A stretch of 64,000 nt of DNA from a candidate division CSSED10-310 bacterium. GTDB lineage: Bacteria > CSSED10-310. A program made the translations under genes and the position numbers. Positions 3,041-36,266 of the stretch are shown in pieces (positions within the stretch are counted from its first letter, which is position 1; each line of letters opens with the position of its first letter). Location of the stretch: positions 24,649 to 88,648 of the forward strand of contig JAFGEQ010000006.1 in assembly GCA_016931515.1 (NCBI GenBank), written 5' to 3'. The notes under the pieces were generated by a model. That model did not search any database. It was not told the DNA's origin and was given only the letters and a program-made list of their open reading frames with translations.

Positions 3041-3064
3041 ATCTATCCGCGATCAGGGGAATTG

Positions 3065-5344: not shown

Positions 5345-5346
5345 TT

Positions 5347-9545: not shown

Positions 9546-9706
9546 ACGAGAGGTTGGATATTGGTGGAGAAGGATCTCGGTAAGTAATCGAACCCTCAAA
9601 CTGTTACCAAATACCTCATATTGGCGCATCCCAGGATAATGATGCCACGCCGGATGGAGCTTTGCATCTGGTATATTTTTTGCTTTAAGATTGGAAGACA
9701 GTTTGA

Positions 9707-10495
9707 ATGTGGACACAAGGCACGATCAGACGAGATCAAGGATTGGAGGGCGCCTTGAATTTAAAATACTCCCATGGTTTTTCTCTGGTTGAGTTACTGG
9801 CTGTCATCGGAATTTTTCTGGTCTTATCCACAATTTCGATTATTGCGTGGGACTCGTTTGGACCCCTGATGATACTGCAAGGTGCGGCTGAAGGACTCGG
9901 GGATACTCTTGAACTGTGTATGCACAAAGCTCTGGCTCAAAAAAATGAGTTTTTTGTAATGATCAACTATAGAGAGCGCTTGTATCGAACAAATGACAAT
10001 ATCACTCTCCAGTTCCCCGCCAATTCATATGTGGCAGTCAATGATGATGGCTGGTTGCCGACCAACACGAATAAGACGCGCAGATACAATCATCACTCAC
10101 GGTTTGATGGCGATAAACCGGAGTATCGGGAGGAGTATGTTCCTGATGCTGGTGATTACGCTAACAAATGGCGAGATAATAACATGATTGAGTCTCGAGA
10201 AATCTTTAAGGGACCGTTACGGATAGGACGTGGAATATTTTTTCAGCCGCCGACGGATGTCCGTGATGCCCCTGTTAGAATCGTTTTAAGCTATCGAAAA
10301 CCATTTATGTACTGGCATGGTCAGAATGTTCCCGTCAACCGTCCTGTTTACGAAGCGGAACGCCGCGAGGATGCCGCCTATTTATATTTATCGGACCATC
10401 GGTACCGACCTGGAGATGACACTAAAGATAATAAAGCACATCTTCGGGTCATTCGCATCATAGAACAAAAGGTCGATGTATATCGACCTATCTAA
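9707..10495 (+). CDS. type IV prepilin-like protein (N-terminal cleavage/methylation motif)
   Basis: Leader then G|FSLVELLAVIGIFLVL with Glu at +5 and hydrophobic helix = class III (prepilin peptidase) signal. Confidence 0.7.
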   Translation: MWTQGTIRRDQGLEGALNLKYSHGFSLVELLAVIGIFLVLSTISIIAWDSFGPLMILQGAAEGLGDTLELCMHKALAQKNEFFVMINYRERLYRTNDNITLQFPANSYVAVNDDGWLPTNTNKTRRYNHHSRFDGDKPEYREEYVPDAGDYANKWRDNNMIESREIFKGPLRIGRGIFFQPPTDVRDAPVRIVLSYRKPFMYWHGQNVPVNRPVYEAERREDAAYLYLSDHRYRPGDDTKDNKAHLRVIRIIEQKVDVYRPI

Positions 10496-10523
10496 AAATC
10501 AGAGTGCTGAAAGGGGATCGGTC

Positions 10524-13328
10524 ATGAGTCTTTGTATAAACAAAGGAAATCGTCACGCCGGCTTTTCGCTTGTCGAAATGCTGATATCTATGGTGGTTTT
10601 CAGTGTTGTCATGGGAATTATCTATTCCTTCCTCCTCCAGACAAAAAAGGACCTTTCCGAAGCGGAAGTCGAACTCGATTTAACGGATAATGCGCAATCC
10701 GCTATCAATGCGTTGCGCAAAGATCTATACCAGATAGGGATTGGCCGCGATACTGAGAAAACACAACCCCAGATATTACGCGCAGGTATGTTCGATCTGA
10801 TTTTCGTCGCTGATCTGGATCGTGAAGTCCGCTCCACCGATAAACGATACGGGAGTCCGGATCCCAATCTTCCGATGTCCTTCTCGCCTGGATCTCCGTT
10901 CTTACCAATCTATTTTTTATTCGATCCCGGTATACCAGAACTTTTTCGCTTTACAGGATGGGATCCGAGTTTGAGTTACGGTTATAACAACCTGGGTGCA
11001 GAAGTCGTCCGTTACTCGTTAGATTGCAACGGTGATAATGTAATCAGCAGTTTGGATCTGGAAGATAATATCGAGATGGACGGAGCCAGGGAACAGACGA
11101 TCAACCCGAATGATTTCTGGCTTTTCAAGGAATGGTGGGGATGCTATAACTCCTCCGGAGTCTATATCAACCAGCACTCCGGACGACATCCGGTCGCCTT
11201 CAATATAAAAGGTATGTTTTATAAACCCACTGGAGGAACACCATCGGGGACAAACAGTCGTTTCATTTACCCCGACGGGAGTTATCCGAAAATACTGTTT
11301 ACTTATTGGGGCCATTTTTGGAATTCCATTACTGATCATGATGATCCGGGAGATCCTGATTGGCCTGGTGAACCACTGGATTTATGGGGTGATTTCGGGT
11401 TGCAAAATCCGATCCAGATCAATCAACCGATAACCCCCGGCGTTGACGGCTCCAGAGACGGCGTTTTAGATATGAACGAAATCAACGAGATGATGAGCAA
11501 TCCCAATAAATCGGAAATCAATCTCCTATACCTTGCCGGTATAACTGGCCGATGTGCTGAAAGTCTTACGGGGGATGAGAATGGGAACGGTATCCCGGGT
11601 GAGTATAGGATTGACCAGTTTATTCGGCGTATCGGTGTCACTCTGGTTGTTGAGGCAGATTCTCCAAACCCCAAATCACCTAATCTTGAGCGGTCCAATA
11701 TGACTAATCCCAGTGCTCCTGGATATTACTATTACAAAGACTACGAGGTATCGATACAGATTAACCCGAGAAATCTGATCTATTCCGGATCTCCACTTGT
11801 TGATATGGGTCAGATGACACCTACGCCGATTCCGCCGACATCAACACCGCTACCCCCTACCAACACTCCTGATCCTTCAATCCCAACCAACACACCAACC
11901 AACACACACACACCGGACCCGATGGCAACACCAACAGCGACTCCTGATCAACTTGGTTTCGATAAGGATGATGGTGAAGTTGTGATCGGCGGTCTTAATT
12001 ATATTTATGGTTTATCCATCGATCGGATGGCTCCATCTGTTTCTGAAATTTGCGCATTGACCAATAGTTCGACCTATCTTGCCTTGTTCGGATATCCAGT
12101 GACCCAGGTTGAACCTGCTAATTTCTGTGATTTGCCGGGATCTTTTGATCCTTGGAATGACGTTGTCATGTCGAATAATGCGAACGGAGGTCTGTCGAAT
12201 CTGTTTTATTACAAGCATAATACTGAATCCAGCGTCAACGGATTCTCAACCCTTCATTCTACATCAGTCGGCTACGATCCATCTGACCGGATCACCTGTT
12301 TCGCAACCGGCAATATTGGACCATTTGGTTATGTTCCGGATGAATATGACGAAGTTGTCGTGGCCTATCATCGATACAATGGAGCTCCTACCGAAAAAAC
12401 CCTGATCGAAGTCATGGCACTAAACTATAACTGTGGTGATTTGATTTCAGTCAGCAATCCACCTCCCCTGTCACTCGACACCAATCGAATCATTAAAGAT
12501 ATGCTGATTGCGGATTTTGACGGTGATGGTATCGGGGAGCTTGTCACAATGACCAGTCATTTCGGCACTGAGGGTGTCTCCCAAATTCGCTATTATCCGG
12601 ATATCTTTAACCAGGGTTGGTCAACATACCATGAGTTCCCGATTTTGAATTTTGGCACGAATGTCCAATGCGCCAAGCTTGTTGCAGATACTGTCTACAC
12701 CGGAAATGCTAAACCTATAGAACCTGACCTTATCATCGTAGGAGAAAATGGACGATTTGCAGTGATTACGAATCGCCGTAGCGGTACCGTATCACCCAAT
12801 CCATTTAACACGACCATCCGATACAGTACATCAGATGCATTTGATCGTTTCTCAACAGTAACCGGTGCAGTCGTATATGACTCAAATAATTTAAGCAGTG
12901 TATATGAGCCGGTCATGGCCATCAGTGGAAATAGTGATGTATCCGATAACGTACAACTTGTACATTACCAGATGACTGATATCGCAACATCTACGATCCC
13001 GTTGGCGAATTGTTCCGGATCAATCTGGCCGACACCCGGTGAGATAATCTCAACCAAAGGAATGAGCTATGTTCCGGTATTCGGGACGGTCAATTCTGAC
13101 ACTTATCTGGTCATCCCGGTCAATGTGGGTGGTATTGATTATGCAACCTTTATAAAGAACCCTGTATTAAGCAGCGGTCCTGTATTCGATCCATCTGTCT
13201 CCTGTCAGTTGGAGCTCTACTCTGTCATTGGAGGAATCAACTGCATTACATCAACGCGGAATGAGTTATCTGGAGATCTTGGAACGATGCCGACACCCAC
13301 AGTTTTACCAGCGACACCAACGCCTTAA
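10524..13328 (+). CDS. giant type IV pilin-like protein (~935 aa) with FG-GAP-like and Ca-binding-like motifs and Pro/Thr linkers
   Basis: ATG 10524 preceded by AAAGGGGA RBS; N-terminus NKGNRHAG|FSLVEMLISMVVFSVVMGIIYSF prepilin motif; DFDGDGIGE FG-GAP-like loop; PT-rich linker near 11818-11948; C-terminal PTPTVLPATPTP. Confidence 0.65.
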   Translation: MSLCINKGNRHAGFSLVEMLISMVVFSVVMGIIYSFLLQTKKDLSEAEVELDLTDNAQSAINALRKDLYQIGIGRDTEKTQPQILRAGMFDLIFVADLDREVRSTDKRYGSPDPNLPMSFSPGSPFLPIYFLFDPGIPELFRFTGWDPSLSYGYNNLGAEVVRYSLDCNGDNVISSLDLEDNIEMDGAREQTINPNDFWLFKEWWGCYNSSGVYINQHSGRHPVAFNIKGMFYKPTGGTPSGTNSRFIYPDGSYPKILFTYWGHFWNSITDHDDPGDPDWPGEPLDLWGDFGLQNPIQINQPITPGVDGSRDGVLDMNEINEMMSNPNKSEINLLYLAGITGRCAESLTGDENGNGIPGEYRIDQFIRRIGVTLVVEADSPNPKSPNLERSNMTNPSAPGYYYYKDYEVSIQINPRNLIYSGSPLVDMGQMTPTPIPPTSTPLPPTNTPDPSIPTNTPTNTHTPDPMATPTATPDQLGFDKDDGEVVIGGLNYIYGLSIDRMAPSVSEICALTNSSTYLALFGYPVTQVEPANFCDLPGSFDPWNDVVMSNNANGGLSNLFYYKHNTESSVNGFSTLHSTSVGYDPSDRITCFATGNIGPFGYVPDEYDEVVVAYHRYNGAPTEKTLIEVMALNYNCGDLISVSNPPPLSLDTNRIIKDMLIADFDGDGIGELVTMTSHFGTEGVSQIRYYPDIFNQGWSTYHEFPILNFGTNVQCAKLVADTVYTGNAKPIEPDLIIVGENGRFAVITNRRSGTVSPNPFNTTIRYSTSDAFDRFSTVTGAVVYDSNNLSSVYEPVMAISGNSDVSDNVQLVHYQMTDIATSTIPLANCSGSIWPTPGEIISTKGMSYVPVFGTVNSDTYLVIPVNVGGIDYATFIKNPVLSSGPVFDPSVSCQLELYSVIGGINCITSTRNELSGDLGTMPTPTVLPATPTP

Positions 13329-13916: not shown

Positions 13917-16900
13917 CTATGGATGTGGATCAAAATATAGCACCGCACCTTTATTTCCGTCGCCAGTATCAACGCGTTCACCACCGGTGTGGCTCAAGAA
14001 AACGACTTCTTCATCCCCCATTTCGCCTATATCGATCCCACCCAGTGCATCGACGCCCAAGCCCGTATCATATGTGTTCTTTAATTCTCCATCTCTCGTA
14101 ATTTCCAATACAAAACCATTACCGCGACAGGCGACATACAAATGGTCATACTTCACCGAGTAAGCAATACCGATGGGGTTGTTCAAATACGCATAAGTAA
14201 AACAAACCACCGATTGAAGGCCACTGCCGTCGACAACCGACAACGTTTCAGATGTGCCGACCGGTCCAGATGGTTTCATCCTGACACGGGTTATATTTCC
14301 AGCTTCCGGATCGGTAATGAACAGGTAACCTGAGCCAGGATCAGCGTCTTCAGATAGTGGAACAAACTCGATTCCCATTGGCGTATCAACACCAGTGAAT
14401 GCCACATAGGGACCATCGTCGAGATCGATTCCATAAACCAATCCTCGATCAGAATGCGATGCGAAAATCAAGCGACTCATATAGGAGGGATCATCGGGCG
14501 CCAGACCCGCATCAACAATGCCGCTGATTCCAACCAGCCCGACCCCTGCTCCCCAGTACCCCGCATAGGTTCCGAATCCACGGGCTCCTCCGTTATCGGC
14601 ACCCAGCGTGCTGCTCTGCTGAGCAAAATCTTCCGCATGATTGTCCGTGTCGATACCATTCGGTACCCGTGCGACAGATTCGTTCGCGATGCTGTCTGCA
14701 TCACCGTTCTCCCCCGGCTCCGGCGCTCCGTTTCCATCACCGTCTCCTGCAGGATCGTCCCCGATTTCAACATCGTCAATGATAGAACTTGCTGTGTCGC
14801 GCAGAATGAAATAGCAGTCGTTATTATTAGAGCCAACTGGATTCCCAACCACCAGATAGGAACCGGGAAGGAAGTTCGTCACGCTGGCAGAGGTTGGATA
14901 AACGATTTCCGTACCACTGCCGCTGCCTATCACGTGCGTTTCAGGTGTTGTGTCGATCATTTCCAATGTCCATCCAGTCAGATCCAGCGTTTGACCCGAT
15001 GTGTTGTACAGCTCAATCCACTCATCAGATGTCGTGATAGCTCCCGAACCCGGTGTATCACTGAATGGTATTCCATCGCCACCCTCAGAATCATTCCAAT
15101 CCTGCTGGGGATCGACAACCACTTCATTGATTACTATCTTCCCGAGTCCTGTAGTGAAATTTATCTCAAAATCAGGACCGGTACTGCCGTCACAGTCTCC
15201 ATCAAGCCCATGGCCACTGGTGTCCGTGATAGCGGACGTTAATGTGACCGTATAGGTTTCCTCAGAAGCTAGCCGATCTCCGGGTTGAAATAGCACAACC
15301 GTGTTTCCGGAAGTAAACATGAAGTTACCGGTAACAGCGCCATCGGGGCCCACCATCAAAAACGACGTTGTGTTAACGGTACTGGGGAGAATCGCCTCTG
15401 TAAAATGGATCGTTACTCCCGTATTGACCGATACGTTCTGATCACCATCGGTTGGATCGCTTTCAAAAACGCATGGAGGAGTTCTATCGTCACCTCCAGT
15501 TCGGAATTCGGCAATAAATGGATCCAGCGGAAGCCCCTGTGTCTGATCCAGCGAATTGCCCGCAAGGTCCGTTACATCTGTCGTTACAGTCAATCGGTAA
15601 TCGGTATCTTCATCCAAATCAGTCTCAGGACTTAAAGAAATACTTGTATTCCCGGGATTCAGAGTAATTACTGAAAGAACATGGTCATCGGGGAATGCGA
15701 CCGGAACCAGATAGACTGAAGCGCTTGTTACTGTAGATGAATTAACCTGTTTAGAAAAATTCATGTAAATCTGAGTGTTAATACTAATTCCCGTGTCCCC
15801 CGATTCCGGATAGGATGATGTCACGTAGAGCCGGTCTCCTCCAGCAGCAACTTGTGTGCAATAACGCCCTCCCGGAAGGCCATCCCCGTCTCCGTCCAAA
15901 GTAACGCCTTGCAAATCCGTCAGTGTATCTTCAACACACACAGTATAATAACCTTCCGAAAACCCGGTTGACGCACTGAAGTTCATCTGAACACCGGAGG
16001 GCCAGGTAATGGTTCCGGATACTTGCCGATTCTGGCTGTCGACGACACTGAGGTATACGCCTGTCAGACTGGAAGGATCGATCTCCTTCGTGAAGATGAT
16101 CGTAAGCAGATCACCGGAAATACTTGCTGACGCTACTTGTGGAGGCTGCGTACTTGAGGCTCCGGTACTGAAATGACTCACGAAAGCATCCGGTAAACCA
16201 CCGGGAATCTGATCCAAAGGATTTCCCGTCAGATCCTGAACTCTGTAATTGACTTCAACCGTATAGGTAATATCAGCCTGCAGTTGTTCCCTCGGAACAA
16301 ACGTTGCCATCATCAAACCCGTATCCACATGGATGTCACCACTGATTTTATTCCCATCCGGTTCCATCACCAGGAAAGCGGTCGTGGATACAGTGGATGC
16401 TTTTACGGGCTCGGAAAAGCCGATCTCTATCAGAGTGTCTACCGATACGAAGGTTGATCCATCGGCCGGGCGCACCCAGACGACACGGGGACTGCCATAT
16501 CCAACAGTAAAAATGCTATTGAAATCATCCGGTCCCGGACTGCGCAGATCGCCATCGAGTGAAACGCCATCCTGATCCGTTATATCTTTATCCAATACTA
16601 TTTCGTAACGGGTCTTCTCAGTCAAATCACTCGAATAAACAAATTCAACTCTTTTATAATCGTTCGAAAATGAAAATGAGCCAGTAGGTGCTTTGGGATA
16701 GGGTGATTGGGGGCTATAGTCAACCTGCACTTCGAACGTTGAGGATGTGACCGTCGATGGATCGACCGGTGACGAAAATTCGACAGCAATCACCGGATGG
16801 TGCGACACACCTTCCGCACCGTCTTCCGGGGTCACGGATGTAACAATAAACCCGTAGTCAGTCATTCCAAAGATACCGGATCCAGCCGGCCCGGGAACGG

Positions 16901-17399
16901 GTTCACCCGCCTTGCCGGAGTGGCCGTTGGGTTCTTTCGTCGGATTCGGATCCGTCACTGCAATGCTTCCAAGACCCTGGTCGTCATTGGCAATCCAGAC
17001 AAACGGTCCGAGAAATGCAACATCATAAGGATTTGAAACAGCCGGTAATCCAAATTGATCCGTTAATCCGCCATGACTATAAATATCTATGTTTCCCGAA
17101 TGAGGATTTACCTGAGTAATTGTGTTCGCAAATTCACCGATTGTTCCTCGATTGGCAACCAGGAGATTGCCGACGCTGAGAACGCTGCCCTGACCGCTCC
17201 CATCGGAATCTTTCCCTGCTATAAATTCGATCCCCCATGGGAAATTCAAATTGGACGCGACAATCTCAGGTGCGACAAGAATAGTGTTTTTATCCTGATC
17301 AAAGGAATTCTCAATTTTATCTTCGCAACCAACCAAGATCATTCCCAGAGCGAGAACAAGGCATACATTTACGGTCATCCATTTCATAATCAACCTCAT
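13917..17399 (-). CDS. giant surface lipoprotein with repeated Ig-like (SbsA/Big_5-type) domains, a lamin-tail domain and beta-propeller-like termini
   Basis: Lipobox LVGC after signal peptide; repeated P..G...V.....I...FS..V....V....F.L units; LTD-like block GKIVINEVVVD...DEWIELYN...GWTLEM (approx 14700-15150); NHL/propeller-like C-terminus. Confidence 0.65.
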   Translation of the reverse strand: MRLIMKWMTVNVCLVLALGMILVGCEDKIENSFDQDKNTILVAPEIVASNLNFPWGIEFIAGKDSDGSGQGSVLSVGNLLVANRGTIGEFANTITQVNPHSGNIDIYSHGGLTDQFGLPAVSNPYDVAFLGPFVWIANDDQGLGSIAVTDPNPTKEPNGHSGKAGEPVPGPAGSGIFGMTDYGFIVTSVTPEDGAEGVSHHPVIAVEFSSPVDPSTVTSSTFEVQVDYSPQSPYPKAPTGSFSFSNDYKRVEFVYSSDLTEKTRYEIVLDKDITDQDGVSLDGDLRSPGPDDFNSIFTVGYGSPRVVWVRPADGSTFVSVDTLIEIGFSEPVKASTVSTTAFLVMEPDGNKISGDIHVDTGLMMATFVPREQLQADITYTVEVNYRVQDLTGNPLDQIPGGLPDAFVSHFSTGASSTQPPQVASASISGDLLTIIFTKEIDPSSLTGVYLSVVDSQNRQVSGTITWPSGVQMNFSASTGFSEGYYTVCVEDTLTDLQGVTLDGDGDGLPGGRYCTQVAAGGDRLYVTSSYPESGDTGISINTQIYMNFSKQVNSSTVTSASVYLVPVAFPDDHVLSVITLNPGNTSISLSPETDLDEDTDYRLTVTTDVTDLAGNSLDQTQGLPLDPFIAEFRTGGDDRTPPCVFESDPTDGDQNVSVNTGVTIHFTEAILPSTVNTTSFLMVGPDGAVTGNFMFTSGNTVVLFQPGDRLASEETYTVTLTSAITDTSGHGLDGDCDGSTGPDFEINFTTGLGKIVINEVVVDPQQDWNDSEGGDGIPFSDTPGSGAITTSDEWIELYNTSGQTLDLTGWTLEMIDTTPETHVIGSGSGTEIVYPTSASVTNFLPGSYLVVGNPVGSNNNDCYFILRDTASSIIDDVEIGDDPAGDGDGNGAPEPGENGDADSIANESVARVPNGIDTDNHAEDFAQQSSTLGADNGGARGFGTYAGYWGAGVGLVGISGIVDAGLAPDDPSYMSRLIFASHSDRGLVYGIDLDDGPYVAFTGVDTPMGIEFVPLSEDADPGSGYLFITDPEAGNITRVRMKPSGPVGTSETLSVVDGSGLQSVVCFTYAYLNNPIGIAYSVKYDHLYVACRGNGFVLEITRDGELKNTYDTGLGVDALGGIDIGEMGDEEVVFLSHTGGERVDTGDGNKGAVLYFDPHP

Positions 17400-18331
17400 T
17401 CCACAGCGGCCATTGCTGCTGTTTCCCTGGAGCGGGCAAGGGCTTCAGAAAAAAAGCCTCCTGTCAGACCATCTATTGCGGCTGTCAATTCCTGAATCTG
17501 TAATTCTCTTTTTACCTTGACAGTAATTGATACTTCCGGTTGGAGGATCATCTCTACCTGCAGTGCGCGACGGTCATAATACAATTCTGTCACATCCTCG
17601 ATCACACTCTGCCTAAATTTCACTTGTTTCTCGGTTTCCGAGCTCACTCTCAAAATATCATTGCTGAAGCAGTAATCCTGGAGTTTCCATCTGAACCTCA
17701 ACTGATAATCGAAATCATCATCGGTGCCCCGCTTCCAGGTTTCCTTGTCCGGACCGACCGTCGTGGTTCCTCCTGATATGCTGATCGTATTCGTACGCGT
17801 ATAATCTCTGTCATCGTCCGTATCGTGTCCGAGAGTGAATTGAACGGAATCGGGCCAAAGTCCTTTCTCCTTCGCCTTCTGCCGCCACTGGGCAAACCGT
17901 TCGCCATCAATTTCAGCAAAGCGGATTGCAGCTATCTGTACATCGCGGATGGATGGTTCCAGATCGAAAGAAGCGAGAATTTCATCAACCGATGGCAGGG
18001 GTGTAGCAGTTGGTTGGGATTCTTCCGGCACATCTTGCTTTGATATAACATCCACAACAGGATCGGGATCGGATAGGGAGATAAGATCCTTCAATCTTTC
18101 CAGTGTCTTATCGCCTATTTTAGGTACATTACCGAGTTCATCCAAGGACTGAAATGGTCCATTGGTGTTGCGATAATCGATGATCAATTGCGCCAGTCCC
18201 GGACCTATGCCCGGTAATGTCTGCAATTCCATGTTCGTTGCGGTGTTGATATTCACCGGTGTGCTATCCAGTGCCTGACAAGCCGCTGCAACAACCAATA
18301 AATATGCAATCGAACTCAGTAGCTTTTTCAT
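17396..18331 (-). CDS. ComEA-like helix-hairpin-helix protein fused to a C-terminal domain of unknown function
   Basis: Signal peptide, then VNINTATNMELQTLPGIGPGLAQLIIDYRNTNGPFQSLDELGNVPKIGDKTLERL (ComEA HhH signature), then ~200 aa unknown; 4-bp overlap with downstream gene. Confidence 0.6.
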   Translation of the reverse strand: MKKLLSSIAYLLVVAAACQALDSTPVNINTATNMELQTLPGIGPGLAQLIIDYRNTNGPFQSLDELGNVPKIGDKTLERLKDLISLSDPDPVVDVISKQDVPEESQPTATPLPSVDEILASFDLEPSIRDVQIAAIRFAEIDGERFAQWRQKAKEKGLWPDSVQFTLGHDTDDDRDYTRTNTISISGGTTTVGPDKETWKRGTDDDFDYQLRFRWKLQDYCFSNDILRVSSETEKQVKFRQSVIEDVTELYYDRRALQVEMILQPEVSITVKVKRELQIQELTAAIDGLTGGFFSEALARSRETAAMAAVE

Positions 18332-27629: not shown

Positions 27630-28103
27630 ATGGGATATTATTCGATTAAAACAAACAGCGCGGGCGAAACGCGCCGGTTGGGAGCGATTCTGGGAGGGTT
27701 CCTGCTGCCTGGGGATTGTATTCCGTTGCTTGGGGAGATGGGAAGTGGCAAAACCTGTTTTGTTCAAGGTGTCGCAGAAGGATTGGGGGTATCAAATGAC
27801 ACAATCATCTGTAGCCCATCGTTCACGTTGATTAACCAGTATTCCGGGCGGATTCCCTTGTATCATATTGATCTTTTTCGTCTTAATTCGTGCCGGGATC
27901 TGGAAGATCTGGAGATTATCGATCTGATTCATGGAGACGGTGTAACGATGATCGAATGGCCGCAGATTGTTCTACCTGGACTTCCCGAGATCATATTACG
28001 AATTGAATTTAATTGGGACATGACATCGGAAACAACACGAATCATATCTTTCATATCGGATACAGATCGTTTTGATGCTCTGGTCGGAGCGCTGCATGAT
28101 TAA
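27630..28103 (+). CDS. tsaE: tRNA threonylcarbamoyladenosine biosynthesis ATPase TsaE
   Basis: P-loop LLGEMGSGKT, ~155 aa, directly upstream of tsaD. Confidence 0.8.
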   Translation: MGYYSIKTNSAGETRRLGAILGGFLLPGDCIPLLGEMGSGKTCFVQGVAEGLGVSNDTIICSPSFTLINQYSGRIPLYHIDLFRLNSCRDLEDLEIIDLIHGDGVTMIEWPQIVLPGLPEIILRIEFNWDMTSETTRIISFISDTDRFDALVGALHD

Positions 28104-29103
28104 CATTCTTGGCATCGAATCTTCGTGTGACGATTCATCGGTTGCAATTGTCGGCGACGGGGTGAATATTCTTGGCAACGTCGTTGCAAACCAGGAAGCC
28201 TATCATAAGAAGTATGGAGGGATAGTTCCAGAGATAGCAGCCAGGAAACACATGGAGCATATGCTGCCGGTCCTGGACCATTGTTTCAACGAATCAGGGC
28301 TGACAATAGATGATATTGATGCTATCGCAGTCACTCATAGACCCGGTCTGGTCGGATCGCTGATTGTTGGTCTGACTGTTGCGAAAACACTCGCCTATAT
28401 TCATCAAAAACCTTTGATCGGTATTCACCATATAGAAGCTCATGCATATGCTGCCTGCCTTGCGGGTCTAAAATATGGGACACCGCATGTTGCACTGGTT
28501 GCTTCCGGGGGCCATACATCACTATTACGCATGTCTGAAGAAGGACGGATGGCGTTGATTGGTCAAACTTTGGACGATGCTGCCGGTGAGGCTTTTGATA
28601 AGGTTTCCAAGCTACTTGGTTTTGGATATCCAGGCGGTCCGGTGATCGATCGGATGGCGGCTGAATGCAATCATACGGGAATTGAATTTCCAAGACCAAT
28701 GTTATCCAGTCCTGACTTCAATTTCAGTTTTTCCGGTTTAAAAACAGCGGTGATGTATCATCGGAAAAAGCATTCGGAATCCTCCTCTGAGCAAATCGCA
28801 ACCGCTTTCCAAGAAGCCGTCGTGGATGTTCTTGTCTCAAAATCTTTGCAGGCAACCCAAAAACTGGGACTCAACACGTTAAGCGTAGTCGGAGGTGTTG
28901 CCGCCAACAGCGCACTTCGCAGGAAGTTCAAAGAAATTTGTGATAAGAGAGGACTCTCTCTATTCATCCCCCCGTCTCGACTTTGCACCGATAACGCCGC
29001 CATGGTTGCGGGTCTCGGTTATCAGAAATATATCCGGAACCTGTTAGATCCATTGACTTTAGGGGTGTGTTCCCATTCTGGAATGATTCTCCAGAAAATG
29101 TAA
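28096..29103 (+). CDS. tsaD: tRNA N6-adenosine threonylcarbamoyltransferase TsaD (Kae1/Gcp)
   Basis: MINILGIESSCDDSSVAIV N-terminus, HH metal motif (GIHHIEAHAY); ATG 28096 overlaps tsaE 3' end. Confidence 0.9.
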   Translation: MINILGIESSCDDSSVAIVGDGVNILGNVVANQEAYHKKYGGIVPEIAARKHMEHMLPVLDHCFNESGLTIDDIDAIAVTHRPGLVGSLIVGLTVAKTLAYIHQKPLIGIHHIEAHAYAACLAGLKYGTPHVALVASGGHTSLLRMSEEGRMALIGQTLDDAAGEAFDKVSKLLGFGYPGGPVIDRMAAECNHTGIEFPRPMLSSPDFNFSFSGLKTAVMYHRKKHSESSSEQIATAFQEAVVDVLVSKSLQATQKLGLNTLSVVGGVAANSALRRKFKEICDKRGLSLFIPPSRLCTDNAAMVAGLGYQKYIRNLLDPLTLGVCSHSGMILQKM

Positions 29104-29126
29104 CAAACGCTGTATCTCTCTTCAGT

Positions 29127-29150
29127 AACCGTCAAATACTCACGGTTTTT
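29127..29150 (+). terminator. candidate intrinsic terminator after tsaD
   Basis: AACCGT-caaatactc-ACGGTT hairpin followed by TTTTT; short stem, by-eye. Confidence 0.3.
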
Positions 29151-29327
29151 CCTACATTTTGTCAATAAATACAATTATATACAAAAGCAATACATGTTTT
29201 TTACAGTCCCGAGGGATCTCTCCACTTGACACTTTCCCCGTTTTTTTATCGTCATAATCAATTTCGAAAAAATTAAATGAGCAACAAATCCTTTTATTAT
29301 TTGGGAGTTACAGATCAGTCCCTTAAA

Positions 29328-29342
29328 TGGCACATGGATTGC
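29328..29342 (+). promoter_or_regulatory. sigma54 (RpoN) -24/-12 promoter element upstream of comEA-ssb
   Basis: TGGCAC-ATGGA-TTGC: GG and GC separated by 10 nt exactly as in the TGGCAC-N5-TTGC consensus; 38 nt upstream of TTG start 29380, followed by AAAGGAGG RBS at 29364-29371. Confidence 0.55.
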
Positions 29343-29379
29343 CTAAGAAATTGTCGATGTCAGAAAGGAGGCGAATAAT

Positions 29380-29739
29380 TTGGCGACTCGTTGGACACTA
29401 TCTCTCGTAGCTTTTGTAATCATGATTTCATTACCATCGATCCTTTGGAACGCACCATCACCTATCGATCTTAATCAAGCGACTCAAACACAGTTAGAAC
29501 TAATTCCTGGGATCGGACCCGCGACTGCGTCTCGGATTATTCTGGAACGAAACCGGCGAGGAGGATTCCGGACTGTGAATGATTTGCTGAAGATTCGGGG
29601 AATCGGTCGAAAGACTCTGAGAAAAATTGAGAAATATCTGATCATTGAGAGGAATAATCTTCCGGACGTCAAGCCGGAGGTTGTAGATCAGGAAGTAACA
29701 ACGGGAAAGTATCAACCATTTAAAAGGAGATCGTTATGA
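29380..29739 (+). CDS. comEA: ComEA-family helix-hairpin-helix DNA-binding protein
   Basis: Signal/TM anchor then LNQATQTQLELIPGIGPATASRIILERNRRGGFRTVNDLLKIRGIGRKTLRKI; TTG start. Confidence 0.75.
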   Translation: MATRWTLSLVAFVIMISLPSILWNAPSPIDLNQATQTQLELIPGIGPATASRIILERNRRGGFRTVNDLLKIRGIGRKTLRKIEKYLIIERNNLPDVKPEVVDQEVTTGKYQPFKRRSL

Positions 29740-30086
29740 TAAATTCAGTCACAATTATAGGGCGACTCGGTCAGGATCCGGAACTGCGAACGACGGAGAA
29801 TGGAACGAGCATGGTCAATTTCAGTCTGGCGCACAATGAGATACGCCTGGTTAACGGCAACCGGGAAACAACACCACACTGGTTTAAATGCATCGCATTC
29901 GGATCACTTGCTCAACTATGCGTCGAATACCTTCACAAGGGATCCCGGATCGGTGTTTCAGGAAGCTTGAAGCAGCGAAATTGGGAAGCTGATGATGGTA
30001 ACAAGCGAAGTTTGGTAGAAATCCTTGTGAAGGACATCGAATTCCTTTCTTCGAATCGCAGCAACGGCACTGATGATGAAAGCTGA
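29736..30086 (+). CDS. ssb: single-stranded DNA-binding protein
   Basis: OB-fold SSB N-terminus MINSVTIIGRLGQDPELRTTENGTSMVNFSLA; short (116 aa) with acidic C-terminal tail DDES; ATGA overlap with comEA. Confidence 0.8.
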   Translation: MINSVTIIGRLGQDPELRTTENGTSMVNFSLAHNEIRLVNGNRETTPHWFKCIAFGSLAQLCVEYLHKGSRIGVSGSLKQRNWEADDGNKRSLVEILVKDIEFLSSNRSNGTDDES

Positions 30087-30160: not shown

Positions 30161-32296
30161 TCAATGCATTCGTGTCAGGTTGGCGGGACCGGCAAGAATT
30201 TTTTTCGGCCCAAATCGATCGAATCGAATTGTCAGACGAGCCTGGGGACCCGAGCCAATACAATGAAGAACGGTTCCCAATCCCCAACTGGGATGCCGAA
30301 TTCTATCTCCGGTTTTATAGTCGGATCGCAGCGACAATTCCGTTACTGGGGATTTAAAATTTCTTTCCATGGTCATGCTTTGGTCTTCGATGCATTTGTC
30401 CGGTATCTCCGCCAAGAAACGGGATGCCTGCTGCTGAATCGGACGCCCATATAAAAAGCGTTGCCGAGCCGCAAACAGGAATAATTTTTCCATGGCTCGT
30501 GTCATTCCAACATAGAGAAGACGTCGTTCCTCCTCTATTTCAGCCGGATCAAGGGATGTGTCCGATCGTATCAACGGACAGAGGTTTTCTTCAATCCCCG
30601 TGATGAACACAACGGGGAATTCAAGACCTTTAGCATTGTGCAGTGTCATTAATTGAACGAGATCCCTTTTCTGCTCGGTCTGATCATCATCCGATTCACT
30701 GTAAAGCGAAAGATAATCTGCAAAATCAGCCAACCGGCTCTCTTCACGATCCGAAAACTCTGCTACAGTGTTTTCAAATTCTTCAATGATCTCGAGTGAT
30801 GTTCTTGCTTCGGTTGACATCTCCGATTCGAACATCTCCCGATAACCCGTCACATCGATCATGTAATCAATGAACTCATTCGCCCGATGTGTGCGCTCAA
30901 AATGAATCAAATCTAAAATCAATTCGTGAAATTTAAGAATATTTTTCAGTTTGTTATCCGTCAATAAACCACTGTCTGATATGCTTTCAATTGTTGAAAA
31001 CAAATCGAGATTTCTCTTCAGCGCTTCCTTTTCAAGGATCTCGATAGTTGTTTTTCCGATGCCCCTCCGAGGTACGTTAATGATCCGCCGACAAGCTCCT
31101 GAATCAAAGGGATTTAAAACCAACCGCATGTATGCGAGCAAATCTTTAACTTCCTTTCGTTTAAAAAAACTGATGTTGCCCACTACACGATACGGAATCT
31201 GAAAACTGTGCATAATTTCTTCAAGTAATCTGGATTGAGCATTGATTCGGTAAAAAATTGCCATTTCACCAAACTTTCTGCCCTTTTTCTCTACCAATGA
31301 TGTGATTTGTCGGCCTACCGCCTCCGCTTCAGATCGATCAGTCGGCCAGATTGTCCGGATAATCAGATCGCCGTCTTTCTGCTCCGTCCAAAGGTTTTTA
31401 GGATTTCGATGGATGTTGTGACTCATCAATGCCGAGGCAGCAGACAATATTACCTGCGTCGAACGATAATTCTGTTCAAGCTTGATCACTTTGGCTCCAG
31501 GAAAATCACGCGCGAAATTAAGAATGTTTGAGACTTCAGCGCCACGCCAACGGTAAATTGATTGATCGTCATCACCCACCGCCATGATATTCCGATACCT
31601 CTGGCCGAGGAGTTGCACCCATTCGTACTGAGCCGAATTTGTATCCTGGTATTCATCTATCATGATGTATCGGTATCGGTTTTGGTATTTTTCCAGAATG
31701 GCGGGTTCCTGGCGAAACAGCATGACTGATTTGATGATCAGATCATCAAAATCAAGAGCATGATCTGCCCGAAGTCCTCGTTCATAGATTTCGTAGACAT
31801 CCGCTACTGTCTGGAGAAAGGGGTTACCGGAAGCATTTTCTTTCATGGAAGATGGGGATTCAAACCGGTTCTTTGCTTTACTGATAGCAGTAATCAGTTG
31901 TTTACCGGTGATTTTATCAGGATTGACACCCGATTCCGCCATTGCCTTTTTAATACGAGCTACCTGATCAGCTTCATCTGCGATTGTAAAATTGGCATGA
32001 ACCTGAAGGTGTTGATGTTCGACCCGGAGAATTTTTGCACAAATAGAGTGAAATGTACCGATCGTCAATCGGACTTCAGGTCCGGCCATCGAATGGATTC
32101 GCTCCTTCATCTCATTGGCGGCCTTGTTAGTGAACGTTATCGCGAGTATCTGCCAAGCCGGCACACCGGCAAAACAGATTAAATGATTTATCCTATTGAC
32201 AATAACCCGAGTCTTTCCGCTCCCGGCACCCGCTAGAACCAGGATCGGACCATCTTTATGTTTGACAGCGATTTCCTGCTGATGATTAAGAATCAT
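30161..32296 (-). CDS. ATP-dependent DNA helicase, UvrD/PcrA/Rep family
   Basis: Walker A AGAGSGKT near N-terminus, 711 aa, SF1 helicase motifs along the length. Confidence 0.85.
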   Translation of the reverse strand: MILNHQQEIAVKHKDGPILVLAGAGSGKTRVIVNRINHLICFAGVPAWQILAITFTNKAANEMKERIHSMAGPEVRLTIGTFHSICAKILRVEHQHLQVHANFTIADEADQVARIKKAMAESGVNPDKITGKQLITAISKAKNRFESPSSMKENASGNPFLQTVADVYEIYERGLRADHALDFDDLIIKSVMLFRQEPAILEKYQNRYRYIMIDEYQDTNSAQYEWVQLLGQRYRNIMAVGDDDQSIYRWRGAEVSNILNFARDFPGAKVIKLEQNYRSTQVILSAASALMSHNIHRNPKNLWTEQKDGDLIIRTIWPTDRSEAEAVGRQITSLVEKKGRKFGEMAIFYRINAQSRLLEEIMHSFQIPYRVVGNISFFKRKEVKDLLAYMRLVLNPFDSGACRRIINVPRRGIGKTTIEILEKEALKRNLDLFSTIESISDSGLLTDNKLKNILKFHELILDLIHFERTHRANEFIDYMIDVTGYREMFESEMSTEARTSLEIIEEFENTVAEFSDREESRLADFADYLSLYSESDDDQTEQKRDLVQLMTLHNAKGLEFPVVFITGIEENLCPLIRSDTSLDPAEIEEERRLLYVGMTRAMEKLFLFAARQRFLYGRPIQQQASRFLAEIPDKCIEDQSMTMERNFKSPVTELSLRSDYKTGDRIRHPSWGLGTVLHCIGSGPQARLTIRFDRFGPKKILAGPANLTRMH

Positions 32297-32336: not shown

Positions 32337-33170
32337 TTAATCGAGGTAATTGGAACCCAGCAGGTCTTTCAGAAGTTCCTGATTAACTGTTTCCAATTCA
32401 ATATCAATGGCATCCGTTTCCGATGCAGGACCCGCGAGTAAAACGGTGACATTGTCCGGAGCGCCCCTGTCTAGTGTTGTTTGGATATAGCCTTTGACTG
32501 CCTGCTCAATGTCTTTCTCATACATGCCGAACTCTTCGCATAATTCCCAGTCCTCCATCACACCGCTCAATCCATCCGTGCAGAGCAGGAATACATCATT
32601 GAGATGAATTGGTACAACAAGCGTGTCAACCAGAATATCCTCGGAACCGCCCAACGCCCGGGTAATCACATTTTTCAACGTGTAGAATTCCGCATCTCTT
32701 TGCGATATCTGATGTTGATCCAGCATCTCTTGAATCTGAGTGTGATCCTTTGTAAGTTGCGTGATCTCTCCATTTGAAATTCGATAAATCCGGGAATCTC
32801 CAACATGGCAGATAATGCCATACCCCCCGACAATCTTCATCATATCGATCGTGGTTCCCATTCCAAACAACTCCGGGCGGTCTTCGGCAATCTTATACAA
32901 CTCTGAATTCGCACAGATAACAGCTGATCGACACATCTCCTGGTGAATCAAAATCATATCATCAATATCTTGATCCTCCGTATCGATGGGTACTTGCTTG
33001 GCAAGGAAATCGAGTATAGCCCTAATGGCAAGACGACTTGCCAAATCCCCTGCCTGATGCCCACCCATCCCATCGGCAACAATAAACATGGCTCGTTCTC
33101 GATCAATATGAAACGCGTCCTGATTGACCGATCTCTTGCATCCGATATCTGTTTGTCCAAATGCTTCCAT
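32337..33170 (-). CDS. PP2C-family Ser/Thr protein phosphatase
   Basis: FIVADGMGGHQAGDLAS metal-binding motif, CTDGL motif; 277 aa. Confidence 0.85.
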   Translation of the reverse strand: MEAFGQTDIGCKRSVNQDAFHIDRERAMFIVADGMGGHQAGDLASRLAIRAILDFLAKQVPIDTEDQDIDDMILIHQEMCRSAVICANSELYKIAEDRPELFGMGTTIDMMKIVGGYGIICHVGDSRIYRISNGEITQLTKDHTQIQEMLDQHQISQRDAEFYTLKNVITRALGGSEDILVDTLVVPIHLNDVFLLCTDGLSGVMEDWELCEEFGMYEKDIEQAVKGYIQTTLDRGAPDNVTVLLAGPASETDAIDIELETVNQELLKDLLGSNYLD

Positions 33171-33182
33171 GTCGTCTCCATG

Positions 33183-36100
33183 TCAATCGTCAAAGAGAAA
33201 TTCGTTACCTGACGGTATCATTATACCCATAGATTTCATTTTTTGAAACAGTGTTTGTCGTGAAACTCCCAGTATTTCCGCTGAACGCATAATGTTCGCG
33301 TTACAATGATGCAAAACCCGCCTGATATAATCCACCTGTACTTTCGCACTAACTTCTGCCAGAGTTTTATTAAATGAAGACGAAGAACTCTGTATCCATA
33401 CCTGCAAATCATCTCTGTCGATCACTTGACCGTCCTCTGAATAATTTACTGCGATCTCCATTGTGTTCTGTAATTCCCGGACATTTCCAGACCAATATCG
33501 TATCCGCAACCATTCGATCGCCCGATCACTCAGAGACAGATTCCGCCGTCCGATTAGTTTGCTGAACTCGTTCAGAAAGCTCTCCGCCAATATGCCAATA
33601 TCCTCCAGCCTGTCCCGCAAAGCAGGTGCTTCCAAAGAAATAACAACCAATCTATAGTACAGATCCTGTCGAAATCTATTCTGTTCGATCTCCAGGCGCA
33701 AATCTTTATGTGTGGCTGAAATAATCCTGATATCAACCGGAATATCCACATCTGATCCGACCGGTCGGATGCTTCGCTCCTGGATCGCTCTTAAAAGTTT
33801 TGCCTGGACAATTAGTGGAAGATCCGCAACCTCATCCAGAAACAGTGTTCCCCTGTCTGCTGCCAGAAATACTCCTTTTCTGGATCTGTCTGCTCCAGTG
33901 AATGCTCCTTTACAATGCCCAAACAGTTCACTTTCGACCAACGTCTCCGGACTGGTCGAGCAATTGAACGCAATAAACGGTCGATTTCGGCGTTGACCAC
34001 AAAAATGGATGGCGCGAGCTATCAATTCCTTACCTGTTCCAGTCTCACCTACAATATGAACCGTTGTTGGGCTATCAGCCAATTCACGAATTTTCTGTTT
34101 TAATCTTCGAATTACCTGCGATTGGCCGAGAATTCGATCTGCATAATCCCGGGACGGTGGTAACAATGCATGATTGTCTTTCATCATTCTCTGTTTAAAC
34201 ACTTGCCGACTGAATGCGATCGGTTTTATCAGGTGCTCAACACTCATTTTCAAATCACTGATATTCATATTTCCGGGAATCGAATCTGCTTTTTTCAACA
34301 GCAAGAAACCCCTTTCCGATACCACCTTTGGAAAACGGAAAGCGATCCATGAACCAATTTCGATTGATCCAGATCCGTCACTATCTCTTCCACGGCCAAT
34401 CCTGCCCAAAATGAATCGCTGCTCCTGCAATCCGGGTGCCTCACCCCAGGCATCACGCCAATTCCAGCGATCTTCCGCTTCTATCAGGTAACAACCTGAA
34501 GAAACACCCGTCAGTGAATGTAGTTTTTCTTTTATATAGTGATTATGACTCTCGAACGATTCCGCGTCGAAAATTGCGTCAGTAAACGTGTGAATCTCAT
34601 TTTGAGGTACTACCCCTGTGTTGTTACTCTCCGGCCGGCTTTTCAGAAGCATTTTGACCGCCATAGACCATCGACATTCATCTCCTATTCGTTCCGCCAG
34701 GGTAACCAGTTTTGTCATTTTTCCAGTCTCCCTTGAAAGATCCGGTTCTTCAGTAATCATCGAATCCATCAGATGGTCCCAGACAAGTTGACCCTGTCTT
34801 AGAAATTCGGCTTGTTCAATTGTTGGTCGAGGAATTCGATGAGTATCTATCCCTGATGGTAACCAGGGATTCTCGCGATACGCTATTTCATAAAGTGATT
34901 TTAGAACAGAATGCTCTGTTTTCACGTATCGTCGAGTTCGCCATACAGGATCATCCATAATTCGGTCGATTCGTGTCATCAATTCGGCGGGAATCGAAGC
35001 AGGCGTTCGGAATAGTTCCCTGAGATATTGAACACTTACCGCTGGTTGATTTAGTTTTCCAGCCACAACAGCGCCCCCCAAAGCAGCAATTGCGAATCGA
35101 AAGTGCCCGGTTTGACCACTCGTTTCACGAAAGAGGCGATCAATATAATTCGCGGCCTGATTGATTTTTCCATCGTCCAACAGCATGTCAAGACGATGGA
35201 GTGCCAACATGCTATGCAATGCGTCGCGGTAACCTCTTTTTAACAGATTATCGACTAATCTCAGACATCGTGCTTCTCGTACCGTGTTGCCATTCATTCC
35301 GTGCATCCGGGCGATATCCATCATGATATGGGCACCAAGGGTTCGATTTGTCTGCCGTTCGATTGTTCGAAGAGCATACTGGAACAGGTCGCGAGATTGA
35401 TTTATATCTCCTCCAAGCAATGCCTGCCTGCCTAAAAGCCACAGGTTTTCAGCGTGTGTGGCATCATCGAGTTGGTTGTCAGAACAGAGTTTGTTGATGA
35501 TCACACTCGCTAAGGATTCCTGCCCCAGTTCCTGACAACGGACAACCGCCATAACTACCAGAGGCCGCAGATCGGAGTGTTCGATATCCTGGTTACTCAA
35601 TTGCCAGAGATTGCATAACAGTGGAAATGAAGCATCAATACGAGCTTTGATCCTCAGCAGCAATATACGTGATTGGTAGGCGAGCGAAGAGGTCGAATCC
35701 GAAGGGAACATTTCAATCGATCGCTGAATTTTTTCCAAAGCAATCAGATAGTTTCCGCGAAGATAATCGAATTCAGCCATTTTCAATTGAATCGGCTTTG
35801 GCACTGATTCCGGCCAGGTTTCGTTACACAGGCAGAAAATTCCTTCGGCTGAGACATCGTCCACCTGAAGAAAAGCGCAGTCCAACGCTTCCACGGCGCA
35901 CTCAACAGCTTCCGGCGCTCCCAGTTTCAAAGCAGCCCAGGCTTTTGATCGCGATCGTTCGTGGAATGGTATAGCAATTGTTTTATCCGAAATTATATTG
36001 AATAATTTTCTATAGATTGCCTGCCTGCGTTCGAGGGGCGTATCCTCAATCAACTGATTCATAAATTTATGGGAATGAAAAATATATCCGTCACCAGGTA

Positions 36101-36266
36101 TATGTCTCAACAAGCTCCGGTTGACGAGTTTGCCTATAACATTAATAATACCTCTCTCCGGGTGCCGCAACATTTTCGTCAGAAGATCCGGGTCGAAAGG
36201 CTGAATCAGATGAGCAGCTGTTTGCAATAAATTTGTTTCGAATGATGTCAGCGTCCGTGTATCCAT
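33183..36266 (-). CDS. sigma54-dependent transcriptional activator with ~600-aa N-terminal sensory region
   Basis: AAA+ sigma54-interaction domain (GETGTGKELIARAIH, ESELFGHCKGAFTGA), C-terminal Fis-type HTH; long N-terminal region with no named motif. Confidence 0.8.
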   Translation of the reverse strand: MDTRTLTSFETNLLQTAAHLIQPFDPDLLTKMLRHPERGIINVIGKLVNRSLLRHIPGDGYIFHSHKFMNQLIEDTPLERRQAIYRKLFNIISDKTIAIPFHERSRSKAWAALKLGAPEAVECAVEALDCAFLQVDDVSAEGIFCLCNETWPESVPKPIQLKMAEFDYLRGNYLIALEKIQRSIEMFPSDSTSSLAYQSRILLLRIKARIDASFPLLCNLWQLSNQDIEHSDLRPLVVMAVVRCQELGQESLASVIINKLCSDNQLDDATHAENLWLLGRQALLGGDINQSRDLFQYALRTIERQTNRTLGAHIMMDIARMHGMNGNTVREARCLRLVDNLLKRGYRDALHSMLALHRLDMLLDDGKINQAANYIDRLFRETSGQTGHFRFAIAALGGAVVAGKLNQPAVSVQYLRELFRTPASIPAELMTRIDRIMDDPVWRTRRYVKTEHSVLKSLYEIAYRENPWLPSGIDTHRIPRPTIEQAEFLRQGQLVWDHLMDSMITEEPDLSRETGKMTKLVTLAERIGDECRWSMAVKMLLKSRPESNNTGVVPQNEIHTFTDAIFDAESFESHNHYIKEKLHSLTGVSSGCYLIEAEDRWNWRDAWGEAPGLQEQRFILGRIGRGRDSDGSGSIEIGSWIAFRFPKVVSERGFLLLKKADSIPGNMNISDLKMSVEHLIKPIAFSRQVFKQRMMKDNHALLPPSRDYADRILGQSQVIRRLKQKIRELADSPTTVHIVGETGTGKELIARAIHFCGQRRNRPFIAFNCSTSPETLVESELFGHCKGAFTGADRSRKGVFLAADRGTLFLDEVADLPLIVQAKLLRAIQERSIRPVGSDVDIPVDIRIISATHKDLRLEIEQNRFRQDLYYRLVVISLEAPALRDRLEDIGILAESFLNEFSKLIGRRNLSLSDRAIEWLRIRYWSGNVRELQNTMEIAVNYSEDGQVIDRDDLQVWIQSSSSSFNKTLAEVSAKVQVDYIRRVLHHCNANIMRSAEILGVSRQTLFQKMKSMGIMIPSGNEFLFDD

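Follow-up and report, generated by a model that had tools for sequence, protein, structure and literature searches.

The question raised by the locus studied here is what switches on a gene for a ComEA-like DNA-binding protein and the short ssb gene that follows it, and what kind of function such a switch would point to. The pair lies in a stretch of 64,000 nucleotides from a bacterium of the candidate phylum CSSED10-310 (assembly GCA_016931515.1, contig JAFGEQ010000006.1, positions 24,649 to 88,648 of the forward strand), which was analysed as a whole and is called the window below, and it is preceded by an AT-rich gap that carries a match to the -24/-12 consensus of sigma-54 (RpoN). CSSED10-310 is a rare uncultured phylum described from Zodletone Spring, an apparent sister of Acidobacteriota with a GC content of 43-59% (PMC8248873). 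An identical ComEA-like protein is encoded on a single assembly contig of run SRR13394437, whose SSB is listed in NCBI nr under the name candidate division CSSED10-310 bacterium. With a probability of roughly four in five, we consider the element to be a genuine sigma-54 promoter that drives the ComEA-like gene (comEA in the following) and also, in this genome, the short ssb that is translationally coupled to it.

Sigma-54 core motif upstream of comEA

The core TGGCACATGGATTGC agrees with TGGCAC-N5-TTGC at all 10 of the 10 specified bases, is non-coding, lies on the strand of comEA and stands 52 nt from its TTG start codon (Table 1). The gap between tsaD and comEA in which it is found has a GC content of 32-39%, against about 46% for the whole window. 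In sigma-54 promoters transcription usually starts about 12 nt past the GC, and this spacing predicts a start at about 29353-29355. The preliminary description of the locus, made from the letters of the window, had reported an exact match with correctly spaced GG and GC, an AT-rich intergenic region of 276 bp and a ribosome-binding site just 3' of the motif, and the sequence bears out all three; the two sigma-54 activators that it had named, the 1027-aa one about 3.8 kb away on the opposite strand, and the pilin genes that it had placed elsewhere in the window were likewise recovered, the latter as genes for pilin-like proteins.

An exact TGGCAC-N5-TTGC occurs once on the two strands of the window, where 0.09 matches were expected, and 8 of 100 dinucleotide shuffles of the window contained at least one. 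With one mismatch there were six matches against 3.7 expected, and since this count is near expectation only the exact match stands out; taken alone, the single-window statistic is modest and suggestive. About 3.9 kb of the window is intergenic, and the best two intergenic matches to GG-N10-GC precede comEA and the pilin-like genes.

Conservation of the motif in related loci

Orthologous loci were collected from contigs that encode ComEA-like or SSB homologs, and two more were added by one metagenome scan, giving 12 distinct loci (the window, L028, L029, L031, L033, L036, L038, L039, L040, L041, L120 and L123), all assigned to CSSED10-310. The gene order plsX-fabD-acpP-tsaE-tsaD, gap, comEA is common to 10 of the 12, the gap measuring 257-295 bp in the syntenic relatives, similar to the 276 bp of the window, and the proteins of the relatives are 58-73% (TsaD), 45-59% (ComEA) and 64-90% (SSB) identical to those of the window. 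The preliminary description had staked its promoter on conservation upstream of comEA orthologs, and TGGCA-Y-N5-TTGC was found there in all 12 loci at a near-constant distance, 48-63 nt 5' of the start codon and at 52 nt in eight of them. In an ungapped comparison of the 12 loci anchored on the motif, the nine bases of TGGCA and TTGC were invariant at 2.0 bits each, no further column between -125 and +50 was invariant, and the five bases separating the TGGCA(Y) and TTGC blocks varied freely. A MAFFT alignment of eight of the gaps agrees, the core being kept and the rest of the spacer essentially unalignable.

Locus L120 is particularly informative, as comEA-ssb is inverted there relative to both flanks (activator, PP2C, uvrD, a gap of 386 nt, comEA and ssb in this order, with tsaD convergent) and the motif is kept, at 63 nt from the ATG. 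The element thus goes with comEA and not with the end of tsaD. No ssb directly follows comEA in L036/L037 and L040, where uvrD comes directly after comEA in the former and about 3 kb of other DNA lies ahead of uvrD in the latter, and the sigma-54 motif is still present in these loci. The predicted promoter is thus tied to comEA rather than to ssb, and its conservation in relatives, as judged from these sequences, puts the motif beyond chance.

These loci bear directly on the view that the consensus match is fortuitous and that transcription reaches comEA-ssb from tsaD or from a housekeeping promoter that went unrecognised. The shuffles that contained an exact match speak for this view, as does the scan for terminators, which found none after tsaD, so that some read-through into comEA is possible. 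The motif is nevertheless kept in 12 loci that have diverged, with a near-constant spacing to the start codon and within a spacer that cannot otherwise be aligned, including L120 with no tsaD upstream, and we regard a chance match as effectively refuted.

The conserved TGGCA-N6-TTGC block might also be the site of another factor, such as a repressor or a different sigma factor, or a conserved RNA element, that merely resembles the sigma-54 consensus. TGGCA/TGCCA is partly self-complementary, which leaves room for binding by a dimeric protein or for a small hairpin. The invariant positions are, however, exactly those of the sigma-54 core with GG-N10-GC spacing in 12 of 12 loci, and the freely varying bases between the blocks speak against a structured RNA as well as a symmetric protein site, there being no dyad and no covariation in support of pairing. 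We rejected the idea of a riboswitch or other RNA element in the gap on a folding z-score of -0.10 against shuffles and on the lack of any Rfam match at the gathering threshold or at E values up to 1. Furthermore, a dyad, an IHF-like site, a -24/-12 element and a short leader with a strong Shine-Dalgarno sequence make up the classic sigma-54 layout, and sigma-54 activators are encoded nearby. An origin of the block in another factor or in RNA is accordingly very improbable.

Distant ComEA homologs from a scan of a genome collection, with at most 56% identity over the HHH domain and no synteny, were set aside as promoter evidence; the motif matches near them sit inside coding sequence (that of L002 encodes MAASLL) and are uninformative on the promoter.

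IHF-like site and dyads upstream of the core

An IHF-like site, WATCAA-N4-TTR with at most one mismatch, was found at an offset of -29 to -31 from the motif in seven of the first 10 loci, three of them perfect, a consensus and a position as expected for IHF in a sigma-54 promoter. The site is perfect in L120 (AATCAATAAATTA) and reads TTTCAAACGGTTA in L123. Farther upstream, the dyad TGTCAAC-N4-GTTGACA is present at -204 to -211 from the motif in seven loci and at -114 to -116 in L041 and L120, the inverted L120 retaining both, so that 8 of the 12 loci have dyads at about -115 and/or -205 (L040 only with three mismatches). GTTGACA-like half-sites occur at -103 to -106 in the window, L029, L033 and L039. 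With at most two mismatches, the dyad has nine matches in 143 kb of DNA from the clade, and eight of the nine lie upstream of comEA; the other fetched DNA, 636 kb in all, has none. Position and specificity make the dyads candidate binding sites of an activator, and to our knowledge TGTCAAC-N4-GTTGACA matches no described activator site. Dyad counts and positional counts were used here in place of 7-mer enrichment, as the presence or absence of 7-mers in the upstream regions was uninformative, AT-rich words being saturated and the null maximum reaching 11-12 of 12.

The preliminary description had expected the AT-rich tract to suit DNA bending or an enhancer and had proposed a search of relatives for inverted repeats 80-150 bp upstream. 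Most relatives do carry an IHF-like site and dyads, the latter at the two distances given above, but both elements are degenerate in the window, which has kept a half-site only.

The TTGACA half-sites were also considered as -35 boxes of sigma-70 promoters and rejected, no -10 hexamer being present at 16-18 nt in the window or in the relatives; the sigma-70 promoter scan calls none there and gave nothing that coincides with the conserved elements. Separately, two adjacent dyad-like sites (TTTCAACATCCGTTGACG and GGTCAACGATATTGGACA, 47702-47736, + strand) lie in the 3' end of a DUF2142 gene, about 350 nt before an H+-pyrophosphatase gene, and are the window's only TGTCAAC-type dyad matches outside chance level.

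Second motif and pilin-like genes

The second sigma-54-like motif of the window, TGGTATATTTTTTGC, stands 74 nt before a TTG codon at 9757, which is preceded by GGAGGG and yields the classic prepilin leader MNLKYSHG|FSLVELL. This TTG is the likely start of the first pilin-like protein, and the motif may belong to the regulon of comEA. No TGTCAAC-type dyad was found before the pilin-like genes.

Candidate activators

The 1027-aa protein encoded beyond uvrD and the PP2C gene has a Walker A motif GETGTGK at residue 740, GAFTGA at 787, an AAA+ domain and a C-terminal HTH_8 domain, and its N-terminal region of about 700 aa gave no significant Pfam or PDB match. Its ortholog stands beside PP2C-uvrD in every locus in which that side is visible (L028, L031, L120 and L123/L124). 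Proximity, the sole basis for this choice, makes it the leading though unproven candidate for the predicted promoter, and the PP2C phosphatase could, speculatively, be its signalling partner.

Control by sigma-54 could also run through another activator, namely a response regulator of the PilR type that serves the pilin promoter as well, or the NtrY/NtrX-like pair (3062-6768). Sigma-54-dependent pilin promoters elsewhere use two-component activators of the PilR type (PMC7170775, PMC6528607), a pair of histidine kinase and response-regulator activator is encoded 3 kb upstream of the pilin-like genes, and the case for the 1027-aa protein from the position of its gene is a weak one. On the other hand, the NtrX-like protein has GAFTHA and not GAFTGA in the sigma-54 contact loop and may not act on sigma-54 in the usual way, the pilin-like genes lack a TGTCAAC-type dyad ahead of them, and the 1027-aa activator is still beside uvrD-comEA after the inversion in L120. 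We hold control by another activator to be a serious possibility that falls short of being the favoured one.

Products of the gene pair and their possible function

The ComEA-like protein has a hydrophobic N-terminal export signal or anchor, kept in eight orthologs, followed by an HHH_3 DNA-binding domain, and its closest solved relatives are the ComEA proteins 8dss (E 2.7e-13), 8dfk and 2duy. GenBank starts it at ATG 29422 (105 aa, P0001). TTG 29380 appears to fit better as the start, because it has a strong Shine-Dalgarno sequence, gives an N-terminal alignment with seven orthologs that includes the full hydrophobic N-terminus, and results in the same promoter distance of 52 nt.

The SSB consists of an OB fold only and ends in a short acidic sequence (...NRSNGTDDES), without a long linker and without an IPF tip, its orthologs being 115-125 aa long. 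SsbB of Bacillus subtilis (3vdy, E 4.8e-13) ranks as its relative below many ordinary SSBs (best E 5e-25), and the resemblance to a competence-type SsbB would be one of architecture only. Short SSBs 70% identical to that of the window are also encoded in L121 (3672-4049) and L122 (3019-3396), among small unknown genes beside a resolvase and a DnaB helicase. This context looks like a mobile element or phage, and therefore the short SSB type may move horizontally.

The combination of an export signal with a ComEA-type HHH domain, a tail-less SSB and a sigma-54-like motif before pilin-like genes suggests a switch-like, signal-dependent module of DNA uptake or DNA handling, and a DNA-uptake role of the pair is plausible. 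The promoter could, however, be real and the pair still not serve natural transformation: the exported HHH protein might bind DNA in the periplasm or outside the cell, with a role in biofilm, nutrition or the envelope, or the genes might form a DNA-repair neighbourhood with uvrD, in which ssb is an ordinary SSB gene with a further promoter. The conserved neighbour uvrD fits this alternative, as do the SSB that is no nearer to SsbB than to ordinary SSBs, the missed ComEA-specific NCBIfam cut-offs, the pairing that is not obligatory (ssb does not follow comEA in L036 and L040) and the window itself, in whose 64 kb no comEC, dprA or secretin gene was seen. It fits less well with an export signal and a single HHH_3 domain in about 100-120 aa, which is the architecture of the periplasmic ComEA of Gram-negative bacteria, with ComEA proteins as the best solved relatives, with an SSB that lacks the linker and tip used by housekeeping SSBs, and with the sigma-54-like motif ahead of the pilin-like genes. 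Type IV pilus genes are, moreover, part of published genome descriptions of the phylum (PMC8248873). A function outside transformation is in our judgement rather unlikely, though far from negligible.

Several observations weigh against a sigma-54 promoter of a DNA-uptake pair in this genome. The upstream elements of the window are weak, with three mismatches in the IHF-like site and no full dyad, and its nearest relatives, L028 and L123, have no good dyads either. The ComEA-like protein scores under both NCBIfam ComEA cut-offs (TIGR01259, 60.2 against 152.35 bits; TIGR00426, 43.6 against 53.1 bits), and it is labelled 'ComEA-like' for this reason. Strict sigma-54 dependence would be odd if the 116-aa SSB were the sole SSB of the genome; its gene would in that case have to be transcribed from another promoter as well or by read-through from tsaD. 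The helix-turn-helix of the activator shows no informative difference between loci with and without dyads, and nothing ties the neighbouring activator to the dyad. Lastly, rpoN is not among the scanned open reading frames of at least 100 aa in the window, a scan that covers 64 kb only; two Sigma54_activat genes, one of them with GAFTGA, point to its presence in the genome.

Proposed mechanism

On the reading that we prefer, a sigma-54 promoter of comEA-ssb, RNA polymerase with sigma-54 would form a closed complex at 29328-29342, which would be opened by an enhancer-binding ATPase bound upstream, the foremost candidate being the 1027-aa activator encoded nearby (GAFTGA, HTH_8), together with its possible PP2C partner. 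The activator site would be the dyads at about -115 and about -205 in most relatives, of which the half-site at 29225-29231 alone would be left in the window, and a bend of the IHF type, some 30 nt 5' of the motif, would assist. Transcription would begin near 29354, and the products would be an exported ComEA-type protein that binds double-stranded DNA and a tail-less SSB.

Sigma-54-like motifs before ComEA-like genes outside the clade

TGGCAY-N5-TTGC occurs at 25 sites in 745 kb of non-redundant fetched DNA, and 17 of these are closely followed by a ComEA-like gene in the same orientation. Eleven of the 17 belong to the window and its clade (L123 entered after that count), and the other six are on non-syntenic metagenome contigs of high GC content (61-75%), namely L042, L043, L051, L052/L061, L090 and the doubtful L059, with the weaker CGGCAC-N5-TTGC in L065 and L077. 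On the high-GC contigs the motif is non-coding and stands 55-190 nt 5' of the ATG start codon of a gene for a small exported ComEA-like protein, and no tsaD, ssb or uvrD was found near that gene. A rough background estimate of about 0.005 per kb of strand predicts about 0.2 such matches in the roughly 38 kb searched, and given this excess small ComEA-like genes seem to be under sigma-54 control in lineages other than CSSED10-310 as well.

Two further observations were made on these and other contigs. L042, L051, L065 and L077 have a leader hairpin GGCGG-N5-7-CCGCC just before an AGGAGG ribosome-binding site, 3' of the sigma-54-like motif, which may be a conserved translational control element. 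In two metagenome-assembled genomes of Thermodesulfobacteriota (L005 at 1064 and L008 at 4421), a conserved TGGCATAAA(G/A)GTTGC about 200 nt downstream of the ComEA-like gene and before the next gene is possibly another sigma-54 promoter in a comEA neighbourhood.

Comparison with known regulatory systems

The classical IHF-assisted sigma-54 promoters of nifH, glnHp2 and Pu combine upstream dyads, an IHF bend and TGGCAC-N5-TTGC. The locus studied here has candidate elements in the same modular layout and matches the core consensus exactly; it differs in the function regulated and in that the IHF-like and dyad elements of the window are decayed while the core is not. None of the sequence features open to testing sets the putative promoter apart from ordinary sigma-54 promoters.

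Pilin genes are known to be controlled by sigma-54 together with PilR-type activators and IHF, as with RpoN2-PilRX in Xanthomonas (PMC7170775) and with pilE of commensal Neisseria under RpoN, IHF and Npa (PMC6528607). The pilin promoters of these genera and of Pseudomonas pilA resemble the present one, in which the corresponding upstream elements are candidates, in having a -24/-12 element, an upstream activator site, an IHF-type site between the two and a surface target of pilus or DNA-uptake function, and in the window a sigma-54-like motif also precedes pilin-like genes. They differ in that the target here is a ComEA-like DNA receptor with an SSB and not a pilin, and in that the candidate activator is not a response regulator and has an N-terminal region of about 700 aa without a characterised match.

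In Bacillus subtilis ComK controls comEA and ssbB, and Sxy/CRP-S is the competence control of Haemophilus. The comEA of Vibrio cholerae is under TfoX/QstR (PMC6237807). These regulons have in common with the present locus that a ComEA receptor and an SSB are placed under a dedicated switch other than the housekeeping one. Unlike it, they rely on activators at sigma-70/sigma-A promoters or on alternative sigma factors from the sigma-70 family, whereas sigma-54 and an ATP-dependent activator would operate here. Natural competence of Ralstonia solanacearum is rpoN1-dependent, alongside twitching motility (Ray et al. 2015, as cited in PMC4676750). Going by that citing text, the Ralstonia case is alike in that sigma-54 and natural competence are genetically linked in a Gram-negative organism, and unlike in that the text describes no sigma-54 promoter at comEA. 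We take the competence effect of rpoN1 to be due to type IV pili.

A search of the full-text literature for comEA with sigma54, sigma-54 or RpoN returned no report of a sigma-54 promoter at comEA, the apparent matches in two promising papers being to the author name 'Comeau', and a broad comparative survey of sigma-54 regulons makes no mention of competence, ComE or DNA uptake. The finding thus adds a new target, along with a new candidate enhancer, to a promoter type that is already known; it extends known biology and is apparently unreported.

Feature coordinates and neighbouring genes

The coordinates of the motif, the putative regulatory elements and the surrounding genes are given in Table 1; nrdR is also among the Pfam-assigned genes of the region.

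Table 1. Position of the sigma-54 core, the candidate regulatory elements and the genes discussed, numbered from the first base of the window.
Feature	Position	Strand	Remarks
NtrX-like response-regulator activator	5308-6768	+	With NtrY-like kinase; pair at 3062-6768
Second sigma-54-like motif TGGTATATTTTTTGC	9669-9683	+	In the gap before the pilin-like pair; second-best intergenic GG-N10-GC match in the window
Pilin-like genes	9707-10495 and 10476-13328		
tsaE	27630-28103		Pfam
tsaD	28072-29103	+	Pfam
tsaD-comEA intergenic regulatory region	29104-29379	+	276 bp, AT-rich; tsaD stop at 29103, TTG at 29380
CTTGACA half-site	29225-29231	+	At -103 from the motif; remnant of the proximal dyad, candidate activator site
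Degenerate IHF-like element TATTTGGGAGTTA	29298-29310	+	After a T-rich tract; three mismatches to WATCAA-N4-TTR
Sigma-54 core TGGCACATGGATTGC	29328-29342	+	GG 29329-29330 and GC 29341-29342, spaced exactly 10 nt
Shine-Dalgarno sequence AAAGGAGG	29364-29371	+	GGAGG ends 8 nt 5' of TTG; GGAGG-type site also in relatives
ComEA-like gene	29380-29739	+	119 aa; Pfam HHH_3, 64.5 bits against a cut-off of 27
Short SSB gene	29736-30086	+	116 aa; Pfam SSB, 111 bits; start overlaps the comEA stop
Weak terminator-like hairpin with T-run	30179-30203	+	After ssb, inside the 3' end of convergent uvrD; 5-bp stem, low confidence
uvrD/pcrA	30161-32296	-	Pfam; convergent
PP2C Ser/Thr phosphatase gene	32337-33170	-	Pfam; adjoins the activator gene, adjacency kept in L028, L031, L120 and L123
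Candidate activator, 1027-aa sigma-54 enhancer-binding protein	33183-36266	-	Pfam; 3.8 kb from comEA

Elsewhere in the window, a second ComEA-type HHH_3 protein of 311 aa is encoded at 17396-18331 (- strand) within a long string of minus-strand genes, directly upstream of and overlapping the gene at 13917-17399 (- strand) for a 1160-aa protein with Big_5, lamin-tail and CopC-like domains, and this pair (13917-18331) may be another extracellular DNA-binding system. The open reading frame of the membrane H+-pyrophosphatase at 48090-50396 (+ strand) has an N-terminal PKD domain (residues 36-97) ahead of H_PPase, an unusual fusion if the GTG start is right.

Significance for CSSED10-310

A wider proposition, which we put forward as speculative and on balance doubtful, is that DNA uptake in CSSED10-310, and possibly in several high-GC metagenome lineages, is governed by sigma-54 through an activator with a sensor region of about 700 aa and its PP2C, acting from TGTCAAC-N4-GTTGACA enhancers on a regulon of ComEA receptor, tail-less SSB and pilins, a logic that would be distinct from ComK, ComX/SigH and TfoX/Sxy-CRP. 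Since unrelated high-GC contigs also carry the motif ahead of ComEA-like genes, the link may be a more general one. The module of core promoter, IHF-like site, dyad and candidate activator could be studied in a heterologous host, and organisms that cannot be cultured offer few other routes. Sigma-54 promoters are silent without an activator and hence mark functions that are switched on only upon a specific signal, and a phylum-wide sigma-54 promoter before a DNA receptor and an SSB suggests tightly gated DNA uptake or handling in this uncultured group.

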